DNA from: a virus
Taxonomy: Duplodnaviria > Heunggongvirae > Uroviricota > Caudoviricetes
DNA: 37,529 bases
Strand: one strand, 5' to 3'
Virus record (IMG/VR): IMGVR_UViG_2778261576_000005
Coordinates: 1 to 37,529 of that record
Positions 5,197-37,529 of this stretch are shown here, in pieces; position 1 is the stretch's first letter; each line of letters begins with the position of its first letter. Below the pieces are notes generated by a model that did no database searches, had not been told where the DNA came from, and worked only from the letters and a program-made list of their open reading frames with translations. Made by a program: the position numbers and the translations under genes.

Positions 5197-6275
5197 CAGA
5201 ACGGGTCCTCCTGTACTCTGGCTTTTTTCTTTTTCCGCGCGCCGGGGGCTTCGGGTTCAGGCAGATAAGCATCAGGCGGGCCGACACGGATTTCCGTCAG
5301 GGTGCCGTTCTGGTCTTGAGTAAACGTGACTTCCGAAACAAGCAGTTCGGTATTGTCGAAACCACAGACCGGATCAAAGACAATCACCCGCTGGTTGGGC
5401 TGCCACAGCGTACCGTTACCCTGTCGCCAGCCCTGCACCACATAGGTGGTTTCATCCGTCCGCGCCGCCCGTTGTCTGGCTTCAAAGTCCGCACGGGCAA
5501 TACAGCCTGCCCCCGTAGCCTGCCCTGTCTGCCTGATATACATCGGACGGTAACGGGCAATAAATGCGTCCTCTGTGCGGGCCCGCAGCGCGGTGGTGGT
5601 GGCCTCACCGAAATCATCGTCGTTTCCGGCACGCTGCCCCGCCACCTGGTAAACAGAAAACCGCTCCCGGATACTCTTCTCCGTATCGCAGGAAAGGATG
5701 TTTTCCCCGAGTACCAGCGCAGTATGTGCCCGCGTTGAGCCAATACCGCCAATCACCAGCCTGCCGTGCGGGTCGTCGTAAGCCAGTGCCTGCTGCTGAC
5801 CGAGTATTTTGTTGATTACCTCAATCACCGTTTCACCGTGATCAGGCTGAACATCAGGAATAACACCCGACGGCGCACCGCTGTTCACCACCTCAATGCC
5901 GAAAGGCGCAGCAAGCGCCTGCGCAATCTGCACCAGCGAGCGTCCGTTAAACTGTGTCGGTTCGGCTGCACAGTCAATCAGGTCAGCCGTCAGACTACGT
6001 CCGGCAATACCGGTGCTGACCGAACGGGAATCGTAACGAACGGGCGTCGCCTCCACCCAGCCGGTGATCACCAGCTCATCACCAATCAGCACTTCCACTT
6101 TTGAACCGTTTTTAATGCGCGGCTGAAGCGTGGTGATACCCTCATCTCCCGGCCACTGGCGGGTGATCTCCACACTGAAATCCCGCGCCAGCCGTTCAAT
6201 ACCGGCACCGATGCGCACCGATGTCCAGCCATTCCACTCCCGGCCATTTACCCGTAGCGTGACATTGTCGTTCAT
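5196..6275 (-). CDS. Tail/baseplate hub protein, Mu gp44 / P2 gpD-like
   Basis: 359 aa; follows the DNA circulation gene as in Mu. Confidence 0.65.
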   Translation of the reverse strand: MNDNVTLRVNGREWNGWTSVRIGAGIERLARDFSVEITRQWPGDEGITTLQPRIKNGSKVEVLIGDELVITGWVEATPVRYDSRSVSTGIAGRSLTADLIDCAAEPTQFNGRSLVQIAQALAAPFGIEVVNSGAPSGVIPDVQPDHGETVIEVINKILGQQQALAYDDPHGRLVIGGIGSTRAHTALVLGENILSCDTEKSIRERFSVYQVAGQRAGNDDDFGEATTTALRARTEDAFIARYRPMYIRQTGQATGAGCIARADFEARQRAARTDETTYVVQGWRQGNGTLWQPNQRVIVFDPVCGFDNTELLVSEVTFTQDQNGTLTEIRVGPPDAYLPEPEAPGARKKKKARVQEDPF

Positions 6276-7600
6276 TGCACTGGCACCTTCAGAGGGATCA
6301 CCGGCACAAAGCCGGGATGCGTAATGGCATTACGCCGGATAATGTCCGCGTCACGCGCCGCGTTATCAAACCAGGTCGCCGCCAGCACCAGCGCGGGTAA
6401 AACCTCATCCGGTGTGCGCTGAATGATCCGTACAGACTGTTCAAGGCGCGTGTTGATATCCGCATTCAGATCTGCTTTCACCCGGCGCAGCGCCAGAAAC
6501 AGCGCATCGCTGGTTGTACGGGACAACTCCTTATCAATTGCCGTATTCAGTGTGTCGCGAATGTCAGTCAGTTCTTCCCACGTCGGCAGGTCAACCGTGT
6601 TTTTCACCGCCGGTGCATTGTTCAGTGCCGGATGCGTGACGGAAGGCCAGCCAGTGCTCTGCGCGGGTGTTGTTGCCTGCCCCACTGCGGAATTCTGCAT
6701 CACCGCGGAAGTTGTTGGCGCAGGCAATCGGGTGACGGCATACGCCGCTTCGCTGATTGCGGTCGTACGAAGGGTGCTGGCAACCACGTTACGCTGCTGC
6801 GTCGCCGTGGCGGTGGTTTTACTGTCCGTTTTCCAGACGCCGCGCGGTTGCAGATCGCTGCCGAGGCTGACACCGGAAAGCGTTTTGATCATGGTGACCA
6901 GGTCGCTGGTGTTACCATAAAGGCGTTTCCCGGTACGCCACATTTTCTGCACCTGCTCAACGAAATTTTTGCCTGACGATGGCGGCGGCAGAAGTACCGA
7001 GATATCCCCCTGCAACAGCCTGGCGGCATCCGATACGGCAGAATCCACCACTTTCATCGCATCAGAAACATACCCCAGCATTATGCTGGCATTACCGATA
7101 ACGTCGTTCTGCACGAAATCCGCCACACCATCGATACTGAAACCGCTGAAGCTGTCACTGATGCAGTCATCCAGTGCAGAACAGGATGACATCAGCGTCT
7201 GCGCCGTCGCCGCACCTGATGTGGGGTAAGAGAGTTCTCCTGCTTCGACAAACTTCAGGTCAAAGCGGACAATACGCCCTTCACTTTTCGATGTGCTGAC
7301 CCGAACTTCCCCGTCAACACAGACTTTCAGCTCACCATATGTCGGGTGGACAAGCGTGCCGGGACCGGGTTTATTCAGCGCTTCAATCAGGCGATCGCGC
7401 TGGTCAAAGCAGTCATCTCCCACCACATAAGCTGTGATGGACGGGCGGAAAGTGACTTTTCCCAGATCTTCGGTATAGGGCTTGTCGCGGTTCGGATATT
7501 CGTGTGTTTCCACACGGCGACCGGTTCCCGCACTTTCTTCTTCAACCTTAAACGGTACGCCGCGAAATGACGCATCCTGAAGCCTGTCTTTCCACGTCAT
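6272..7600 (-). CDS. DNA circulation protein (Mu gp43/N-like)
   Basis: 442 aa; N-terminus ASFRGVPF...HEYPNRDKPYTEDLG is typical of this family. Confidence 0.8.
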   Translation of the reverse strand: MTWKDRLQDASFRGVPFKVEEESAGTGRRVETHEYPNRDKPYTEDLGKVTFRPSITAYVVGDDCFDQRDRLIEALNKPGPGTLVHPTYGELKVCVDGEVRVSTSKSEGRIVRFDLKFVEAGELSYPTSGAATAQTLMSSCSALDDCISDSFSGFSIDGVADFVQNDVIGNASIMLGYVSDAMKVVDSAVSDAARLLQGDISVLLPPPSSGKNFVEQVQKMWRTGKRLYGNTSDLVTMIKTLSGVSLGSDLQPRGVWKTDSKTTATATQQRNVVASTLRTTAISEAAYAVTRLPAPTTSAVMQNSAVGQATTPAQSTGWPSVTHPALNNAPAVKNTVDLPTWEELTDIRDTLNTAIDKELSRTTSDALFLALRRVKADLNADINTRLEQSVRIIQRTPDEVLPALVLAATWFDNAARDADIIRRNAITHPGFVPVIPLKVPVQ

Positions 7601-7614
7601 ATAAACTCCGGATA

Positions 7615-7671
7615 CAAAAAACCCGCCAAATCTGCTTTGTTAGTTATTTACATCGCAGAAGATGTGGCGGG
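7615..7671 (-). terminator. Candidate intrinsic terminator downstream of the tail-operon moron
   Basis: Minus-strand stem CCCGCCA / TGGCGGG with an internally structured long loop, followed by a run of six T. Confidence 0.4.
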
Positions 7672-7690
7672 AACCTAATATTTTTAATTA

Positions 7691-8203
7691 CTATCTGAGT
7701 TGAACATCAATGGAATAAATATTACCACTCTTTATAAATTTAGAATCTGTCCTTTCATCAAAAGATTCAAATGACTGTACCTTTAAAAACTTTTTCATTT
7801 TATTTTCAAAAATACTTTCATTAACACCAGTTAAATACTTGAATGCTCTACCAGCAAGGACCTCATTACTTAAATCCATTGTGTTTTTATTGTCTTTGAA
7901 AAACCAAACAATAACCTTTTGTGGGCATGATGGATTATAAACAGATATATAAAACTGCGGCTCATATTTTTCATCAGCGTCATCACTAAGCATTTCTTCA
8001 GAAGATAATTCTCTTCTGAATTCATATTGCCGCTTAGTTATTCCTTCATCCTTTATTATCTCTTGCTTAACTGGTGCAATACCTATAGAAGAGATTAATT
8101 CTGACTCATTAAAGCTGAACTTACACTCTTCCGCAGCCAAGTTAAAAGATAAAAGTGCAGATATAAAAAAAACAAAGATACGCATAATCATCCCTTCAAT
8201 CAT
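7691..8203 (-). CDS. Moron-encoded secreted protein of unknown function (likely start at 8185)
   Basis: AT-rich insert between DNA circulation and tape measure genes; signal-peptide-like MRIFVFFISALLSFNLA then AEE; two Cys in the mature part; AAGGG SD-like element 6 nt before the third ATG. Confidence 0.6.
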   Translation of the reverse strand: MIEGMIMRIFVFFISALLSFNLAAEECKFSFNESELISSIGIAPVKQEIIKDEGITKRQYEFRRELSSEEMLSDDADEKYEPQFYISVYNPSCPQKVIVWFFKDNKNTMDLSNEVLAGRAFKYLTGVNESIFENKMKKFLKVQSFESFDERTDSKFIKSGNIYSIDVQLR

Positions 8204-8284
8204 TTGTAAGGAATGATTATATTAACTACTTAAAGCTGAAAACCCAAATTATGCCAGACAAAAACACATTAATCATTTTGTACA

Positions 8285-10117
8285 CTACCTGAACCGCGTA
8301 TAGCCAACATCATGGCTGACATCAAAACCGCTGGATCGCGTTTCCATAACCCGCATACCCGGAGGCGAATTCACAAAAGAGACCTTGATCTCACCATCAA
8401 CTTTTGGCGCAGAAGCTTTGTTAATCATGAAGGGATTCTGGCCTGTGGCATCGGAGGCGTTGTTTGACTGAGCCGGATCCACCGCCGGATAAGGTGTGTA
8501 TCCCCGTGCCGGTATTCCCGTCCCATAAGCATCATAAGCACCCGCGCCCCACTGCGCAGAGTTAATGGCATCGACCGTGTCACCGGAACTGTCGGTAAAC
8601 CACTCAATAATTGGCTTCAGCTTGTCCCACATATCCTGAAACCACTTAACAACCGGTCCCCAGTTATTGATTACCATCCCCAGCGGCGACCAGGCAAAAA
8701 CCTTCTTCAGAAGTTCCCAGCCAGCCTCAAAATAAGGACCAATGGTTTCCCAGAGCTTCTTGAAATAAGGTCCGACAACATCCCAGTTAGTGATAATTAA
8801 TCCCGCAGCCAGGGCTATCGCCGTCGCAATCATGCCAATCGGCGTCATCGACATGATCCTGCTGACAATACTGATGGCACCGCCAACGCCCATCAATCCC
8901 AGTTTCAGAATCGCAAGACCGGCAGCAAGCCCGACGACGCCGCGAATAACCCGGGGATTTTCATCCGCAAACTTCGTGAATTTCTCCCCCAACTCCCCCA
9001 GCCATTGTGTGATATTTTTAGCGTCACCAGAAAATGCGCCGCCAATAGCCGCAAGGCCGTTAGTTGCGGTCCCTGTCATTGCCTCCCACAGGTTGGACAG
9101 CGTACCAAGCTGTGCCTGAACACGTTTATTCAGGCTGGCCTGTTTATTCATCTTCTGCTGGATCTGATCGTAGCCATCCTTTCCTTTATCGATTAGTGCA
9201 TTGACCACCTGAAGAGTTTCGGCATCATCACCAAATATTGCCTTAAGTACACCTGTTCGCTTAACGTCGGTCAGTTTTCGCAGCTTTGCCAGTTGCCTGA
9301 ACATGTTATCAAGACCGCCAAAACTCCCTTTGCCGTCAGTAAAATCGAGCTGTACCCCGAGTTTCTGGCGGGCCATGATTTTATTAACGTCCCTGATTTT
9401 CTTAACGCTTAATCCGGACTGGATAACTTTTCGCAGGGCATTACCTGCCGACTCCCCGTTCATCCCCATCTGATCCATCATGACGCTGATGGGGGCAAGG
9501 CTCTGTGCAGCCTGAAGACCATCCTTGTTCACCATCTTCAGAACAGAACTGGTTTTAGTGAAGAAGGACAACATGTTGGTATCGTCAACGCCCAGATAAA
9601 ACGCCTTCTGGATAGTGTCGAACAGCCCCATCATGTCTTCTGACGCCGTTCCGGTAGCATCCTGCATCTTTGCAGCAAACTCAGCAGCCGCTTCCGGTGT
9701 TTTTTTCAGTTGTACCGCAAGATAAGCTGTCGCTTTACCCACACCACCCAGAATGTTTTCTGCCGGGATCCCCTGACGCACCAGCATCTGCATCATGTTC
9801 TGGAAATCAGCCGTTGTACCGGGTAGCTGGTTACCCAGGCCAATAGCCAGTTTATTGATGTCCTGAAAGCGCTTTCCAACCTCGCCGTTCGCATCCATCA
9901 TGGCGACTTTCAGCCCGGTGGCGGCGTTTTCCTGATCGGCATAAGATTTCAGGGAAAGCGTCAGACCCGCAGCCAGTCCGCCACCAAGCGCCAGCCCACC
10001 CTGTGACGCTTCTTCCGCCTGGCGTTTAAATCCCCGGATTTTCTTTTGCATTTTCGACAGCGCGGGAGAAAGCCTGTCGACACCGGTGATCAACGCCTTA
10101 AGCTCAAATTCAGCCAT
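8285..10117 (-). CDS. Tail tape measure protein
   Basis: 610 aa; Gly/Ala-rich with hydrophobic segments; follows the frameshifted chaperone pair. Confidence 0.85.
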   Translation of the reverse strand: MAEFELKALITGVDRLSPALSKMQKKIRGFKRQAEEASQGGLALGGGLAAGLTLSLKSYADQENAATGLKVAMMDANGEVGKRFQDINKLAIGLGNQLPGTTADFQNMMQMLVRQGIPAENILGGVGKATAYLAVQLKKTPEAAAEFAAKMQDATGTASEDMMGLFDTIQKAFYLGVDDTNMLSFFTKTSSVLKMVNKDGLQAAQSLAPISVMMDQMGMNGESAGNALRKVIQSGLSVKKIRDVNKIMARQKLGVQLDFTDGKGSFGGLDNMFRQLAKLRKLTDVKRTGVLKAIFGDDAETLQVVNALIDKGKDGYDQIQQKMNKQASLNKRVQAQLGTLSNLWEAMTGTATNGLAAIGGAFSGDAKNITQWLGELGEKFTKFADENPRVIRGVVGLAAGLAILKLGLMGVGGAISIVSRIMSMTPIGMIATAIALAAGLIITNWDVVGPYFKKLWETIGPYFEAGWELLKKVFAWSPLGMVINNWGPVVKWFQDMWDKLKPIIEWFTDSSGDTVDAINSAQWGAGAYDAYGTGIPARGYTPYPAVDPAQSNNASDATGQNPFMINKASAPKVDGEIKVSFVNSPPGMRVMETRSSGFDVSHDVGYTRFR

Positions 10118-20196: not shown

Positions 20197-20547
20197 TCAC
20201 TTAAGCCGTTCACGGGCCGTCTTCGCCTTATGACACGGCCAGCACAGACTCTGCAGATTACAGTCGGCATCAGTGCCGCCATGCGCTTTAGGGATGATGT
20301 GGTCAACAGTTTTCGCCTCACGCACCACACCAGCACGCAGACATAACTGACACAGGCCTTTGTCACGCTTCAGGACACGCGCGCGGATACTGTCCCACTT
20401 CGAACCGTAGCCGCGCTGATGACGGGATTGTCCAGGTTTGTATTGCTTCCAGCCTTCGCTTTTGTGGCTTTCGCAGTAGCCTGAAGGGTCTGTGGTTGTA
20501 TGGCGGCAGCCGCGAACACGGCAGGCTTTCGGGGTTCGTGGCGGCAT
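20197..20547 (-). CDS. HNH endonuclease (terminase-associated)
   Basis: 116 aa; DHIIPKAHGG...CWPCHKAK HNH motif plus N-terminal Cys cluster. Confidence 0.85.
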   Translation of the reverse strand: MPPRTPKACRVRGCRHTTTDPSGYCESHKSEGWKQYKPGQSRHQRGYGSKWDSIRARVLKRDKGLCQLCLRAGVVREAKTVDHIIPKAHGGTDADCNLQSLCWPCHKAKTARERLK

Positions 20548-22213: not shown

Positions 22214-22494
22214 TAGTGCCTCAGATGATCAACCAGACGTGCAACGTTGCCTCTGACGGCCACCAGCACGGAAAGAAAAATAGTATTCGCCACGATAATG
22301 GGCCATGAGGAATGGGGATAAATCCCACAGAGATAGGCCAATGGAACAGCACTGTATGTAACAGTAATCAGCCAGGCTAAACGTGAAACCCAAGGACGAT
22401 GCCGCGAATCACCACGACGATAAAACATCAGAGTAATAACAACACAAGCACATAACAGCGCATTTATAGTTGCTGTCGGGTCATTTAGCTCCAC
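22213..22494 (-). CDS. Holin / lysis membrane protein
   Basis: 93 aa with 2-3 hydrophobic helices directly upstream of endolysin. Confidence 0.55.
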   Translation of the reverse strand: MELNDPTATINALLCACVVITLMFYRRGDSRHRPWVSRLAWLITVTYSAVPLAYLCGIYPHSSWPIIVANTIFLSVLVAVRGNVARLVDHLRH

Positions 22495-22867
22495 CTGAAC
22501 CTCCCCGGCGCGTTATGAGCGCCACCAGCGAGCCGATATCCTGATTATTCAGGAACGTCAGGATTTTAACGGCTAAAGCAGAGACGATTACGGCACCAAT
22601 AGCATCCAGAGGTTTATCACTGTATCCGGTCAAGTTCGCCAGCTTGGAGCCAACCAACCCAGAGCAAAGGATCCCGGCAATATATGACACGATAAAATAT
22701 GCCAGTCGGCGCGATGCTCTCAGATCTGCTGCTGTTGCTATGTAGAATACAGCCCCTGCAAATGCGCCAAATACAACGCCGTAATCAGTTCCGGTCAGCA
22801 GTCCATAAACACTGGCACCCGTCAGGGCACCACCAGCCAGCCCAGTACCGGAAATCGGATCGGACAT
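22481..22867 (-). CDS. Holin-like membrane protein
   Basis: 128 aa, Gly/Ala-rich with 3-4 predicted TM helices; GAGGGGG SD. Confidence 0.55.
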   Translation of the reverse strand: MSDPISGTGLAGGALTGASVYGLLTGTDYGVVFGAFAGAVFYIATAADLRASRRLAYFIVSYIAGILCSGLVGSKLANLTGYSDKPLDAIGAVIVSALAVKILTFLNNQDIGSLVALITRRGGSGGAK

Positions 22868-22946: not shown

Positions 22947-23204
22947 TCAAACACTACCCTGTTGATGATTTCTCAGAAGCGAACTTGACTCCCAAGGGAA
23001 ACTCAACTTTCCGTTAAAACCACCAGCAGACATTCGTTCAATTTCCACAGAAATATCACTGAGCCGTTCTTCAAGCTCTGCTTTTTCTTTTACCAGACGG
23101 TTATAGCGGCTTAGATGAAGCTTTTGCTGCTCCAGCCAGTCTTCAAGCTGTTCAACAGTCATACCAGGGTTAAAAAAATATGGCTGCTGCTTTTCGCCCT
23201 GCAT
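22947..23204 (-). CDS. First late-operon gene, hypothetical (85 aa from ATG 23204)
   Basis: GGAGG SD 6 nt upstream of ATG at 23204; the longer track ORF would run through tR'. Confidence 0.45.
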   Translation of the reverse strand: MQGEKQQPYFFNPGMTVEQLEDWLEQQKLHLSRYNRLVKEKAELEERLSDISVEIERMSAGGFNGKLSFPWESSSLLRNHQQGSV

Positions 23205-23223
23205 TATTGACCTCCAGAAAAGC

Positions 23224-23247
23224 AAAAACCCCGCCGAAGCGAGGTTT
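23224..23247 (-). terminator. tR'-like intrinsic terminator in late leader
   Basis: Minus-strand CCTCGC-TTCG-GCGGGG hairpin followed by TTTTT, about 45 nt downstream of the PR' -10. Confidence 0.65.
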
Positions 23248-23294
23248 GTTATGATTTCGTTAACGGCAGACATACAAAGCCCATCGTTAGGAGA

Positions 23295-23354: not shown

Positions 23355-24107
23355 TTATCTTGTCACTTTTCTCAATTGTGTCTCTGCATATGCTTCTTCC
23401 TGCCAGCACTTTGTAACCAGTTTATCAATGACATCTGCATATCCTTTGTACCACTGATAATCCGTCAGATCCGGTACCAGCTTCTGGACATGATGCCGCG
23501 CCAGTGTGGTTGGTAAACGGCTAAACCGGTTTCCATTGCAACGCCCACAAATCTTATAAACAGGCGCACCATGAAGCCGGGTTCTTTTTTCATCCAGTAC
23601 AATACCTTTCCCCTTGCACCCTCTGCACGCTGTGCTGACTTCTCCCTTACCATGACAATGCTGACATAGTTCCTTCACCCACTCTTCCTTGATAACAGAT
23701 TCCCCGCTTCTGGAGTGTTTCACCACTTCGCGCAATACATTATGAAATCCAGTACCAGCACAATGCTCACAGCGAGCCTTACTTGCCGCAGACCTGGAAT
23801 AATCAGCAAAGGCAAAATTCACAAGGTAAGGGATGATCTGTAACCGGGTTTCTTCACTCAATTTGTTCAATGTCGGGTTATCCAGTGCCATCGCGTAATT
23901 GAGCAGACCTTCAATCGCAAACTGAGGATCCTGAACACCAACTTTTGCCAGGAATAAGGCAAACCCAAGCGGTGCTTTCGACTGCACCATCCCCTGCGCA
24001 GCCATTACATCCGTAATTGTTAAACCACCAGAGCCTGTCGCCGGTGCGTCATCGCTCAATTTTGGAGATTTTGGGGAGTAATATTTTGGTAAGGCTTCAA
24101 GGTTCAT
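23355..24107 (-). CDS. Late antiterminator Q-like protein (QuuQ-type, 250 aa)
   Basis: Directly upstream of PR'/tR'/lysis genes; four CxxCxGxG-type motifs; DUF968 gene adjacent as in Qin prophage. Confidence 0.65.
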   Translation of the reverse strand: MNLEALPKYYSPKSPKLSDDAPATGSGGLTITDVMAAQGMVQSKAPLGFALFLAKVGVQDPQFAIEGLLNYAMALDNPTLNKLSEETRLQIIPYLVNFAFADYSRSAASKARCEHCAGTGFHNVLREVVKHSRSGESVIKEEWVKELCQHCHGKGEVSTACRGCKGKGIVLDEKRTRLHGAPVYKICGRCNGNRFSRLPTTLARHHVQKLVPDLTDYQWYKGYADVIDKLVTKCWQEEAYAETQLRKVTR

Positions 24108-24120
24108 GCTCGTTCTCCAC

Positions 24121-25116
24121 TTACGCCAGTACGCCTATTGCCAGCGCACAATCGATAAAACGAAATATCAGCTCCAGCTGGGAGCCATACTTCTCTTCAA
24201 ATGCCACGGTATCCGCATGCAGCTCGTCGTGATGCTTTCTGCACAAAGGCAACACAAAGAGGTCATGCGCTTTTGTACCCATTCCCCCCTGACCGTGGCC
24301 TATCAGGTGGTGGGGATCATCAGCAGGCTTTCCACAACATGCACACGGCTGTGTCTTAACCCAGCGTGTGTACTTTTCATTAACCCAGCGGCGACGTTTT
24401 GGGCGTAACATAAAAGACTCCGGCGACTCCGGATCCACTTTCAGCGCCAGCACCTTTTTCGCTTTATCCTGGATGATGCTGGTGGCAGGAACCGAAGGCA
24501 CAAGGTCACTTTCCCGGGTGACAGACGGCACAACAGGCTTCGGTAATCTCAGTGCCTTACGGGCTGCACTTTCCGGTAAGGCATCCGCCAGGTCATTACG
24601 AATCAGCCACCAGCACAGTTCCGGCATTGTCACAACGTGACTGTCATCAAAACCGAGATCCCGACGCACAACAGACAACACCCAGCGGGCACAGTTATCC
24701 GTTGCCATTGATTCCAGCCGTTCCGTGAACTGATCGCGCAGCTGGTTATCGCAGTGCCAGCACAGACGGATTGCGCCCGGAGCGTGTCGCATTGTTGTCA
24801 TGTTCTCGCTGTGCCAGTCGGAATGAGGCCACTGGCAGCCTTTTTCACGAAGTAACCAGCTTTCAAGACATTCCACGCCACCAGCACGACGGATCACTGC
24901 CTCATTGCGGAACACGGCCCGAACGGCAGGATCATCCGCCAGCGGTTGTGATGCCGCCGGAACGGCACCACTGGCGAAAGATGAATAACGCTCCGGCTCA
25001 GGCTCCAGCAGGACACGCCCCTGCATAAACAGGGGCATCAGCTCTGAACCTGGCCTGAACAATACGATCCCCATACGCGGGGCAATTTCAGGGGTCAGTA
25101 GTGCTCTCACGGTCAC
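24121..25116 (-). CDS. DUF968-like protein with C-terminal HNH-like Cys/His cluster
   Basis: 331 aa; CACCGKPADDPHHL...CRKHHDELH. Confidence 0.6.
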   Translation of the reverse strand: MTVRALLTPEIAPRMGIVLFRPGSELMPLFMQGRVLLEPEPERYSSFASGAVPAASQPLADDPAVRAVFRNEAVIRRAGGVECLESWLLREKGCQWPHSDWHSENMTTMRHAPGAIRLCWHCDNQLRDQFTERLESMATDNCARWVLSVVRRDLGFDDSHVVTMPELCWWLIRNDLADALPESAARKALRLPKPVVPSVTRESDLVPSVPATSIIQDKAKKVLALKVDPESPESFMLRPKRRRWVNEKYTRWVKTQPCACCGKPADDPHHLIGHGQGGMGTKAHDLFVLPLCRKHHDELHADTVAFEEKYGSQLELIFRFIDCALAIGVLA

Positions 25117-36761: not shown

Positions 36762-37034
36762 ATGAACACCTTGTTTTTACTGATGGCTGAATTCAATACC
36801 CCTAACATTGAACTCTCAGCAGTTAGCCAAAAGTACTTTGGCATGAGTCCAGCCACGGCAGAAGCAAAAGCAAACGCTTGTAAGTTGCCCGTTCCAACAT
36901 ATCGCATCGGCACATCACAAAAAGCAAAACGTTGCATCAATATTCAGGATCTTGCGGAATACATAGACAAAAGGCGAGAAGAAGGGCGTGCTGAGTGGGA
37001 AAGGGTCAGAACCCATAAACAAAGGCTCATTTAA
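36762..37034 (+). CDS. Excisionase-like DNA-binding protein (PrtN family)
   Basis: GGAG SD 6 nt before ATG 36762; about 90 aa; last gene of early-left operon before the expected int. Confidence 0.5.
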   Translation: MNTLFLLMAEFNTPNIELSAVSQKYFGMSPATAEAKANACKLPVPTYRIGTSQKAKRCINIQDLAEYIDKRREEGRAEWERVRTHKQRLI

Positions 37035-37041
37035 ATAGAAT

Positions 37042-37075
37042 ATGAATAAACCCATCCAAAGATGGGTTTATTCAT
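37042..37075. terminator. Perfect 15-bp stem hairpin between convergent xis-like gene and the 153-aa ORF
   Basis: atgaataaacccatc-caaa-gatgggtttattcat; no clean T-run on either side. Confidence 0.5.
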
Positions 37076-37529
37076 AATGTTGAAGAGCAGCGAGTATCAG
37101 TTTTTTATGCCGTTTAACCATAGTTTTAGATATCTCAACTGCACATCGAACTTGTCTCATACAATGATCTGTAATGCGACCTTTTAGCACGTCACCATAT
37201 TGGATGGCTATTTTCTCTTTAATAATTTCAAGATCGAAAGCAGCATGAGCCTCAATGCAATTAACAAATGAGTCCCATTTAAGAAAATCATGGTCCTCTC
37301 TATTAATTTCGACCTGACAAGCCATAAGATCATTGTTTCTCTTAATAAATTCATTTATATCTGAATTTATTAGAAGAACTAAAAGAGGTTCACAGCAAAC
37401 AACCACCATATATTTTACTTTAGGTGGGGTCGTAAAATCACAATGAAGATACAATACATCACCGGGTGATATACCTCTTTCACGACTAAAATTAGCCTTA
37501 AAATCAGGAGGGAAACAATCACCCAGCAT
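37068..37529 (-). CDS. Hypothetical protein encoded on AT-rich DNA (153 aa), unknown function
   Basis: ORF runs to the window edge, which ends exactly on its ATG; convergent to the early-left operon. Confidence 0.5.
   Translation of the reverse strand: MLGDCFPPDFKANFSRERGISPGDVLYLHCDFTTPPKVKYMVVVCCEPLLVLLINSDINEFIKRNNDLMACQVEINREDHDFLKWDSFVNCIEAHAAFDLEIIKEKIAIQYGDVLKGRITDHCMRQVRCAVEISKTMVKRHKKLILAALQHYE

Follow-up and report, generated by a model that had tools for sequence, protein, structure and literature searches.

A swappable AT-rich cassette with a predicted exported protein in the tail module of an SfV-like temperate phage

Background

The tail genes of the virus genome recorded as IMGVR_UViG_2778261576_000005 overlap or abut one another except at positions 7601-8284, where a strongly AT-rich block separates the gene for the tail tape measure protein from that for a DNA-circulation protein, which raises the question of what such a block is doing at this place. 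The stretch analysed (37,529 nucleotides, in the following called the window) represents a complete 37.5-kb genome of an SfV-like temperate phage, to which Escherichia phage SKA5 is the closest record and SfV, SfI, and SfII are close relatives; nearly all of its late genes are situated on the minus strand. An earlier note, made from the sequence alone, had described the block as a classic moron encoding a secreted protein. The present analysis identifies the block as an accessory cassette that can be swapped and occupies a conserved variable slot in a Mu-like tail module; it contains a real gene that is under purifying selection and confined to this slot in every relative found.

Organization of the cassette and its product

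The block fills precisely the interval that separates the stop codon of the tape measure gene (PF10145) from the first codon of the DNA-circulation gene (PF07157), as the earlier note had placed it. Its GC content of 31.1% compares with a mean of 51.6% (sd 5.2) over all 684-nt windows, and the minimum of these windows across the 37.5 kb falls exactly at position 7601, such that the block of about 680 bp noticed earlier among tightly coupled tail genes is in fact the stretch of this length with the lowest GC content; the two flanking genes exhibit 56.1% and 51.8% GC. The following features define the locus:

8285-10117, minus strand: tail tape measure gene (610 aa, PF10145), upstream edge of the slot
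7601-8284, no strand: AT-rich cassette (31% GC), occupying all of the space from the tape measure gene to the DNA-circulation gene
7691-8185, minus strand: coding sequence (CDS) of the cassette (164 aa, PHROG 8976), with its stop codon TAG at 7693-7691
8129-8185, minus strand: predicted signal peptide (residues 1-19, MRIFVFFISALLSFNLAA), with type I cleavage before EEC, by inspection
6272-7600, minus strand: DNA-circulation or Mu gpN-like gene (442 aa, PF07157), downstream edge of the slot

The block contains a single substantial open reading frame (ORF), on the minus strand. The mechanical ORF call begins at 8203; the ATG at 8185 (MRIFVFF...) is taken as the real start, since a GAAGGG motif lies 6 nt upstream of it, the PHROG profile starts there, and all homologues open with MR at this position. 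The N-terminus consists of M-R, a hydrophobic core of 15 residues, IFVFFISALLSFNLA (mean Kyte-Doolittle value 2.3), and the residues LAA directly followed by EEC. Sec signals are recognised by a positive n-region, an h-region of 10-15 residues, a small residue at position -1 (usually also at -3), and the lack of a lipobox cysteine at +1, and by inspection the sequence shows all of these marks of a signal for Sec export and signal peptidase I cleavage. A lipobox is absent, the first cysteine being situated at +3 and not at +1 (LAAEEC). In 11 homologues the cleavage pattern is mostly V/S/I-x-A before the cut and E-x-C after it, and the hydrophobicity of the signal region is kept across homologues though its sequence varies. 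The signal-peptide-like N-terminus noticed earlier is thus borne out by inspection and by the homologue alignment, except that cleavage after A19 appears more likely than cleavage after A18.

The mature protein would comprise around 145 aa (17.0 kDa, pI 5.1) and contains no histidine at all. Its two cysteines, C21 and C87, which the earlier note had pointed out, are invariant in the 11 aligned homologues and belong to 45 invariant positions (the 2 cysteines and 43 others) that extend from Escherichia to Pantoea; YEPQFY, DNxNT, and RAFKYLTG are conserved as motifs. AlphaFold2, run on the homologue alignment, yielded a confident model (pLDDT 87, pTM 0.79) with a detached N-terminal helix of low confidence and a confident alpha/beta domain of seven strands and four main helices. 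Taken together, signal peptidase I cleavage would be expected to give rise to an acidic alpha/beta protein of around 17 kDa in the periplasm, with one disulfide. The term "secreted" used previously should accordingly read "exported to the periplasm", as predicted from the N-terminus; nothing points to a release from the cell.

The slot and its occupants

Among 5,426 complete Escherichia coli genomes surveyed, 1,097 possess a junction of the tape measure and DNA-circulation genes. The content of this junction varies:

85 genomes: the cassette of the window, always at the junction
179 genomes: a different gene of 176 aa (ETEC H10407 type), with an N-terminal signal or anchor
79 genomes: a membrane-anchored OB-fold protein of 148 aa (PF12869), on the opposite strand
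55 genomes: a lipoprotein of 225 aa with the lipobox LLGGC (OW1E2 type)
about 700 genomes (the remainder, by subtraction): mostly empty junctions like those of SfV, SfI, and SfII

All four cargo types begin with an envelope-targeting sequence. The cassette is carried by around 1.6% of the complete E. coli genomes (85/5,426), many of them from poultry and livestock, and in the 84 genomes with a complete copy both flanking tail genes are kept over the 1.9 kb tested. An empty junction of the SfV, SfI, and SfII type consists of a spacer of 60-70 nt that holds a terminator alone. In SfV, SfI, SfII, and vB_EcoM-689R6, both flanks are 96-97% identical to those of the window, and the corresponding span measures 1,280 nt, as against 1,901 nt in the window. 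The presence of the insert is hence polymorphic, and the cassette is dispensable for the phage, because SfV, SfI, SfII, and most E. coli prophages with the junction do without it.

According to the alignment of the variants, the swapped segment takes in around 3-4 codons at the end of the tape measure gene and extends as far as the T-run before the ribosome-binding site of the DNA-circulation gene. Such boundaries within conserved flanks fit an exchange of cassettes by homologous recombination. An insertion by a transposable element was considered and rejected, as there are neither terminal inverted repeats nor a target duplication. The 3' end of the tape measure gene (around 8285-8400) is itself mosaic: one allele is common to the window and the empty SfII junction, another to the H10407, OB-fold, and lipoprotein variants.

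Concerning the alternative occupants, the H10407-type family is found in the same slot in prophages of Leclercia and Lelliottia, at around 53% identity. Homology between this family and that of the window was rejected (hhalign probability 1.4%), and the AlphaFold2 model of the H10407-type protein exhibits a different order of secondary-structure elements, at lower confidence than for the window protein. The OB-fold variant (PF12869, tRNA_anti-like) is represented by E. coli LD91-1 (locus L003, 1012-1458); as its gene runs against the direction of the tail genes, a separate promoter must drive it. In E. coli CFSAN061772 (L019; NZ_CP042893.1, 1125044-1127079), a prophage remnant contains an intact H10407-type CDS in the slot (WP_001560827.1), the annotation lists the tape measure and DNA-circulation genes on either side as truncated pseudogenes, and a gene for a DNA cytosine methyltransferase adjoins; this hints that slot cargo can outlive its phage. 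Tail modules of Atlantibacter and of the Leclercia type possess two extra genes (around 505 aa and around 93 aa, no Pfam match) between the DNA-circulation and hub genes (L009, 6980-8778; L015-L017, around 6013-7820), where the module seems to have another variable site.

Divergence and selection

Relatives of the cassette gene are present at more than 50 loci, in Escherichia, Kluyvera, Atlantibacter, and Pantoea phage AH07, and wherever the context is available they have a PF10145 tape measure gene on one side and a PF07157 DNA-circulation gene on the other and share the orientation of the tail genes. The homologue of phage AH07 exhibits 42% identity, and three metagenomic or genomic loci, one of them in a metagenome-assembled genome (MAG) of Atlantibacter, 57-62%; one Kluyvera genome and 44 IMG/VR contigs also hold a relative in the same slot. 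In every lineage the GC content of the homologue amounts to 31-41%, as compared to 47-58% in the flanks. Across the compared loci, identity to the window is 42-62% for the cassette protein, 69-76% for the tape measure protein, 51-76% for the DNA-circulation protein, 79-92% for the tube protein, and 69-83% for the hub protein. Judged from these values, the divergence of the cassette gene tracks that of the tail module at a faster pace. Since all relatives share the slot and their divergence follows the module, the gene is best regarded as a long-term resident of the slot and not as a recent random insertion.

The comparison with an E. coli allele of 96% identity revealed 11.7 synonymous and 10.3 non-synonymous differences (dN/dS 0.20), and in the same comparison the adjacent DNA-circulation gene is nearly identical (dS 0.003). 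This combination indicates purifying selection on the cassette gene and a spread of its alleles by recombination. The CDS is annotated as intact in every carrier genome listed, out of the 85 E. coli genomes, and the ORF also looks intact in 43 of 46 further metagenomic or draft loci. In the remaining three (L049, L061, and L064, from IMG/VR), the start codon is lost, or the ORF is frameshifted or truncated to 114 codons; these may be cases of real decay or errors in draft sequences.

Transcription and translation signals

Four features bear on the expression of the cassette gene:

23355-24107, minus strand: Q-like late antiterminator (phrog_127), preceding the lysis, head, and tail genes, which share its strand
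8216-8221, minus strand: perfect TATAAT hexamer that shares bases with the 5' arm of the hairpin in the next line
8184-8220, minus strand: predicted RNA hairpin of 13 bp (arms 8220-8208 and 8196-8184), pairing the Shine-Dalgarno motif GAAGGG (8197-8192) and the first bases of the AUG
7616-7671, minus strand: terminator-like hairpin, CCCGCCA...TGGCGGG (7671-7622), with an extended interrupted stem and a run of six T at 7621-7616

The terminator-like hairpin and T-run, which had been reported to follow the gene, are indeed present, and they are situated directly before the GGAG (7609-7606) and the ATG (7600) of the DNA-circulation gene. In homologous loci this place is taken by a canonical ACCCGCTTCGGCGGG-T7. 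SfII, whose junction is empty, carries a variant of its own there, TCCCACTCCGGTGGGA-T6, for which a terminator is annotated, and an equivalent terminator is found behind every alternative cargo of the slot. As it occurs at empty and alternative junctions as well, the terminator is a feature of the junction and does not constitute evidence for an independent transcription unit. Transcription can reach the DNA-circulation gene only by way of the cassette; no other promoter that could serve the baseplate genes was seen, and the cassette ORF must therefore belong to the late transcript. By analogy with the Q antitermination of lambdoid phages, this transcript presumably reads through the junction terminator during lytic growth.

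On such a transcript, the start of the cassette gene is predicted to be buried. In a uniform calculation for 37 genes of the minus strand, its opening energy of 13.5 kcal/mol is the highest (median around 6.3), and its mean probability of being unpaired, P(unpaired), is by a wide margin the lowest, at 0.02 (next lowest 0.23, median around 0.42); the start is occluded despite surroundings that are AT-rich and fold weakly. A clade of around 62% identity possesses a hairpin of its own, of unrelated sequence, over the Shine-Dalgarno motif and the AUG, with a P(unpaired) of 0.08-0.15. In three alternative cargo genes, the ribosome-binding site is open (0.56-0.71). Concerning covariation in the hairpin, variation within each clade is too small and the clades cannot be aligned to each other. 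A function as RNA thermometer was rejected, as the modelled hairpin is closed from 20 to 50 °C. For the window allele, the hairpin over the ribosome-binding site is a solid prediction of the folding model.

The TATAAT hexamer, found by eye, has no matching -35 element (GGTTTT) and no TG extension; further upstream, another candidate seen by eye is ATGATT-17-CATAAT, with 8 of 12 positions matching. When the 5' end of the RNA is moved to 8207-8210 in the model, P(unpaired) rises to around 0.46, and a transcription start at this place would fit the TATAAT. In the clade of around 62% identity, a TGnTATAAC likewise overlaps the 5' arm of the hairpin. A promoter-dependent switch of the 5' end is a speculative hypothesis suggested by these folding models.

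Some further genes of note are found elsewhere in the window. A block of 34% GC at its end (37001-37529) contains an ORF of 153 aa on the minus strand (37068-37529), another candidate cargo gene, for which no PHROG or Pfam match was obtained. An ORF of 108 aa (22947-23273, minus strand; phrog_3501 of unknown function, no Pfam match) lies in a dip of 42% GC between the Q-like antiterminator gene (23355-24107) and the holin gene (22481-22867), i.e., in the classical position of lambdoid morons. Of two HNH endonuclease genes on the minus strand (24121-25116 and 20197-20547; phrog_96 and phrog_144), one adjoins the Q-like gene and the other is situated just upstream of the terminase region.

Database searches and comparison with known systems

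The earlier statement that no family can be recognised holds for NCBIfam, in which the cassette protein has no match, and for Pfam and the defence models of PADLOC-DB: no Pfam match was found at E ≤ 1, and no PADLOC-DB family at E ≤ 1 either, the latter for the three alternative slot proteins as well. It does not hold for PHROG 8976 (function unknown), whose profile is covered completely (positions 1-164 of 164) by residues 7-170 of the long ORF at E = 5e-107. This family is small: a tblastn search of 50,697 phage records matched only SKA5 and Pantoea phage AH07, 14 clusters at 90% identity were obtained among 5.8 billion proteins, and an exhaustive search with a profile hidden Markov model (HMM) among 1.84 billion proteins recovered just 12 family representatives at the 50% identity level and no bridge to any known family. 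No family member with available context was detected outside the slot. Rfam gave nothing near threshold, and no paper was found that refers to the protein accessions, to PHROG 8976, or to phage SKA5.

Despite the confidence of the structural model, the fold appears to be without a convincing relative in the PDB or BFVD. A sequence-profile search of the PDB gave only noise (E ≥ 0.016, short stretches), and Foldseek searches of the model against the PDB nothing below E = 0.05, with DcrB and RseB at insignificant levels only. In BFVD a single match was obtained, to an uncharacterised protein of an uncultured virus (E = 1.5e-6, TM 0.62, 14% identity), which carries the name "ABC transporter periplasmic binding protein". 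Because the protein contains no histidine and shows neither a catalytic-type motif nor a match to an enzyme fold, we infer that it is a binder rather than an enzyme.

Morons in the sense of Juhala and Hendrix (in PMC3594210) are extra DNA of deviant base composition, with their own promoter and terminator, expressed from the repressed prophage. The cassette is extra DNA, being absent from SfV, SfI, SfII, vB_EcoM-689R6, and most E. coli junctions, and its 31.1% GC deviates from the 52-56% of the flanks. Concerning the "classic moron" of the earlier note, the foreign composition, the dispensability, and the predicted export of the product fit, whereas a sigma-70 promoter is not apparent, the terminator is junction-wide, and the insertion is not recent. 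The cassette resembles lambda bor and lom in being an AT-rich add-on of the late region that encodes an envelope protein; those genes, however, are documented independent units expressed by the prophage, whereas for the cassette a promoter is unproven and empty junctions have the terminator as well.

The closest layout is that of HK97 gp15, a moron beside the tape measure gene, which blocks DNA entry with a specificity that depends on the tail of the arriving phage (Cumby et al. 2012, reviewed in PMC3594210). Both are extra genes of deviant GC content in a tail operon, adjoin the tape measure gene, are absent from close relatives, and encode envelope products. However, gp15 is a small inner-membrane protein of the YebO family with its own promoter and many chromosomal homologues, features none of which was found for the window protein, which is predicted to be a soluble periplasmic alpha/beta domain of 145 aa with a cleavable signal peptide. 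Membership in YebO is not indicated either by Pfam at E ≤ 1 or by the homology searches, which return slot relatives only.

Spackle (gp61.3) of phage T4 is a signal-cleaved periplasmic protein with a single disulfide that binds the gp5 tail lysozyme and stops penetration (PMC7677548). It is likewise a small phage-encoded protein of the periplasm with one disulfide (both predicted for the window protein), but it constitutes a helical bundle of 75 aa made early by a virulent phage, whereas the window protein would be twice as large and of alpha/beta type, and the two show no match in sequence or in fold. The Cor proteins of phi80 and N15 are receptor-blocking lipoproteins and are grouped with Llp of phage T5. 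Llp itself is a receptor-blocking lipoprotein encoded beside the tail or receptor-binding gene of matching specificity and protects against phages of the same type (PMC9586334). The window protein shares with Llp and Cor that an envelope protein is encoded next to a tail gene; unlike them it possesses no lipobox, which is found in the OW1E2-type occupant of the slot. Sim of phage P1 is a Sec-processed periplasmic protein of a temperate myovirus that blocks a step after adsorption and before DNA entry; no similarity to it emerged from the tblastn search of the 50,697 phage records, a general search that included no Sim-specific comparison. The layout is thus that of a tail-operon add-on of the HK97 gp15 kind, and, judged by sequence, fold, or lipobox, the protein does not belong to the gp15/YebO, Spackle, Llp/Cor, or PADLOC families.

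Possible function of the protein

Virions assemble in the cytoplasm. Since an exported protein cannot be part of the tail, and phages without the cassette make tails with near-identical flanking genes, the product is most simply viewed as an accessory envelope factor. Among the roles open to such a factor, we tentatively favour, at somewhat below an even chance, superinfection exclusion in the periplasm directed against incoming tails, by analogy with T4 Spackle and HK97 gp15. This choice is based on the restriction of the family to a slot beside genes of ejected proteins, on its faster co-divergence with the module, on the presence of unrelated envelope proteins in the same slot, and on the lack of a catalytic signature. 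The exported protein would bind or inhibit a component delivered to the periplasm by the contractile tail of an incoming phage with the same type of module, candidates being the tape measure protein, the gpN-like protein, and the tail tip; penetration or DNA entry would be blocked, and superinfection thereby excluded. The placement beside the genes of the ejected proteins would keep the excluder and the specificity of its target linked in mosaic recombination. Concerning expression, the gene would be carried on the Q-antiterminated late transcript with its ribosome-binding site locked in the hairpin, giving a low output, and, more speculatively, transcription initiated within the hairpin, downstream of the TATAAT (8221-8216), would free the site and permit expression in the prophage state.

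Several observations weigh against exclusion, or against the expression that it would need. Expression in the prophage state, which classical exclusion requires, is unproven, as no promoter was detected: a scan with the sigma-70 consensus between 7300 and 8700 found 0 sites, as compared to 3.1 expected by chance. In phage AH07, the homologue follows the tape measure gene after a spacer of 16 nt, which leaves no room for a promoter, and has a good Shine-Dalgarno motif and an open ribosome-binding site; there, the gene is simply part of the late operon. The occlusion is not family-wide, with a P(unpaired) of 0.31-0.46 in L006, L009, and AH07, and in the E. coli allele of 96% identity a single change in the stem weakens the pairing and is not compensated. 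The searches run revealed no link in sequence or fold to known exclusion proteins. Finally, a second junction of the SfV type occurs in 18 of the 60 best carrier genomes and in at most 118 of 1,045 other records (raw counts, with kinship ignored), and in one genome only are there two copies of the cassette itself. Carriers are thus more often doubly lysogenic for the tail module, which speaks against a broad exclusion of all related phages.

A far-reaching extension of the exclusion reading, which we regard as improbable, would see the gap between the tape measure and gpN genes as an "entry-guard" slot, in which interchangeable and unrelated envelope families evolve together with the ejected tail proteins and keep kin phages from delivering their genomes. 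The family of the window would then represent a new periplasmic anti-injection fold, its translation switched by the choice of the 5' end, i.e., between a hairpin-locked late RNA and an open, short prophage RNA starting inside the hairpin.

The foremost alternative, although an unlikely one, is a factor of lysogenic conversion or host fitness that has no relation to phage competition. The lysogen might thereby, for example, withstand stress or serum, be immune to a toxin that acts in the periplasm, or colonise its host better; lambda Bor and the SodC of prophages are models for such a role. General fitness factors usually have chromosomal or scattered homologues, whereas this tiny family is found in only one slot of one type of tail module and diverges with it; no chromosomal homologues were found, and all structural matches are below a meaningful level. 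There is also no sign of domestication, as 84 of the 84 E. coli genomes with a complete cassette keep both flanking tail genes.

Somewhat less probable still is a late accessory protein of the lytic cycle, which in the periplasm of the dying cell would mask receptors or debris, exclude late superinfection, or tune the breakdown of the envelope. The gene has the same orientation as the tail genes and is contained in the late transcript that leads to the baseplate genes, no promoter of its own was found, and the arrangement in phage AH07 is what such a role would lead one to expect; Llp of phage T5 provides a precedent (PMC9586334). However, on the late transcript the ribosome-binding site is predicted to be closed in the window allele and in the clade of 62% identity, which would be odd for a protein made at that stage alone, and viable close relatives manage without the cassette.

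Very improbable, in spite of a position between two virion-protein genes that is strictly conserved across genera, is a structural or assembly component of the tail, such as a chaperone or a minor tail protein acting with the tape measure protein: the tails of SfV, SfI, and SfII work without it, unrelated proteins substitute in the same slot, and the predicted cleavable signal peptide and the conserved pair of cysteines direct the product to the periplasm, away from the site of tail assembly. A non-functional, decaying ORF in AT-rich junk DNA, for which the lack of a known function and of a detected promoter and the apparent disruption at 3 of 46 metagenomic or draft loci could be adduced, is effectively refuted by the conservation data, i.e., by the dN/dS of 0.20, the full-length ORF with 45 invariant residues from Escherichia to Pantoea, the confidently predicted fold, and the intact CDS in every carrier genome listed.

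Conclusions

The cassette represents an uncharacterised family of predicted exported cargo in a recognisable variable slot, which as such would hardly astonish phage biologists; of interest are the fold, for which no convincing relatives were found, the occupation of one slot by several families, and the occluded ribosome-binding site, a simple case of late-operon cargo that might be kept quiet or expressed selectively. If superinfection exclusion is the true function, the protein would constitute an uncharacterised periplasmic fold that prevents contractile-tailed temperate phages of Enterobacteriaceae from delivering their genomes, and the slot would be a predictable genomic site for harvesting more such factors, with at least four families already visible. 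In that case, the finding would bear on the competition among SfV-like serotype-converting and related prophages, on failures of host range in phage therapy of E. coli and Shigella, and on the periplasmic roles of the ejected tape measure and gpN proteins.

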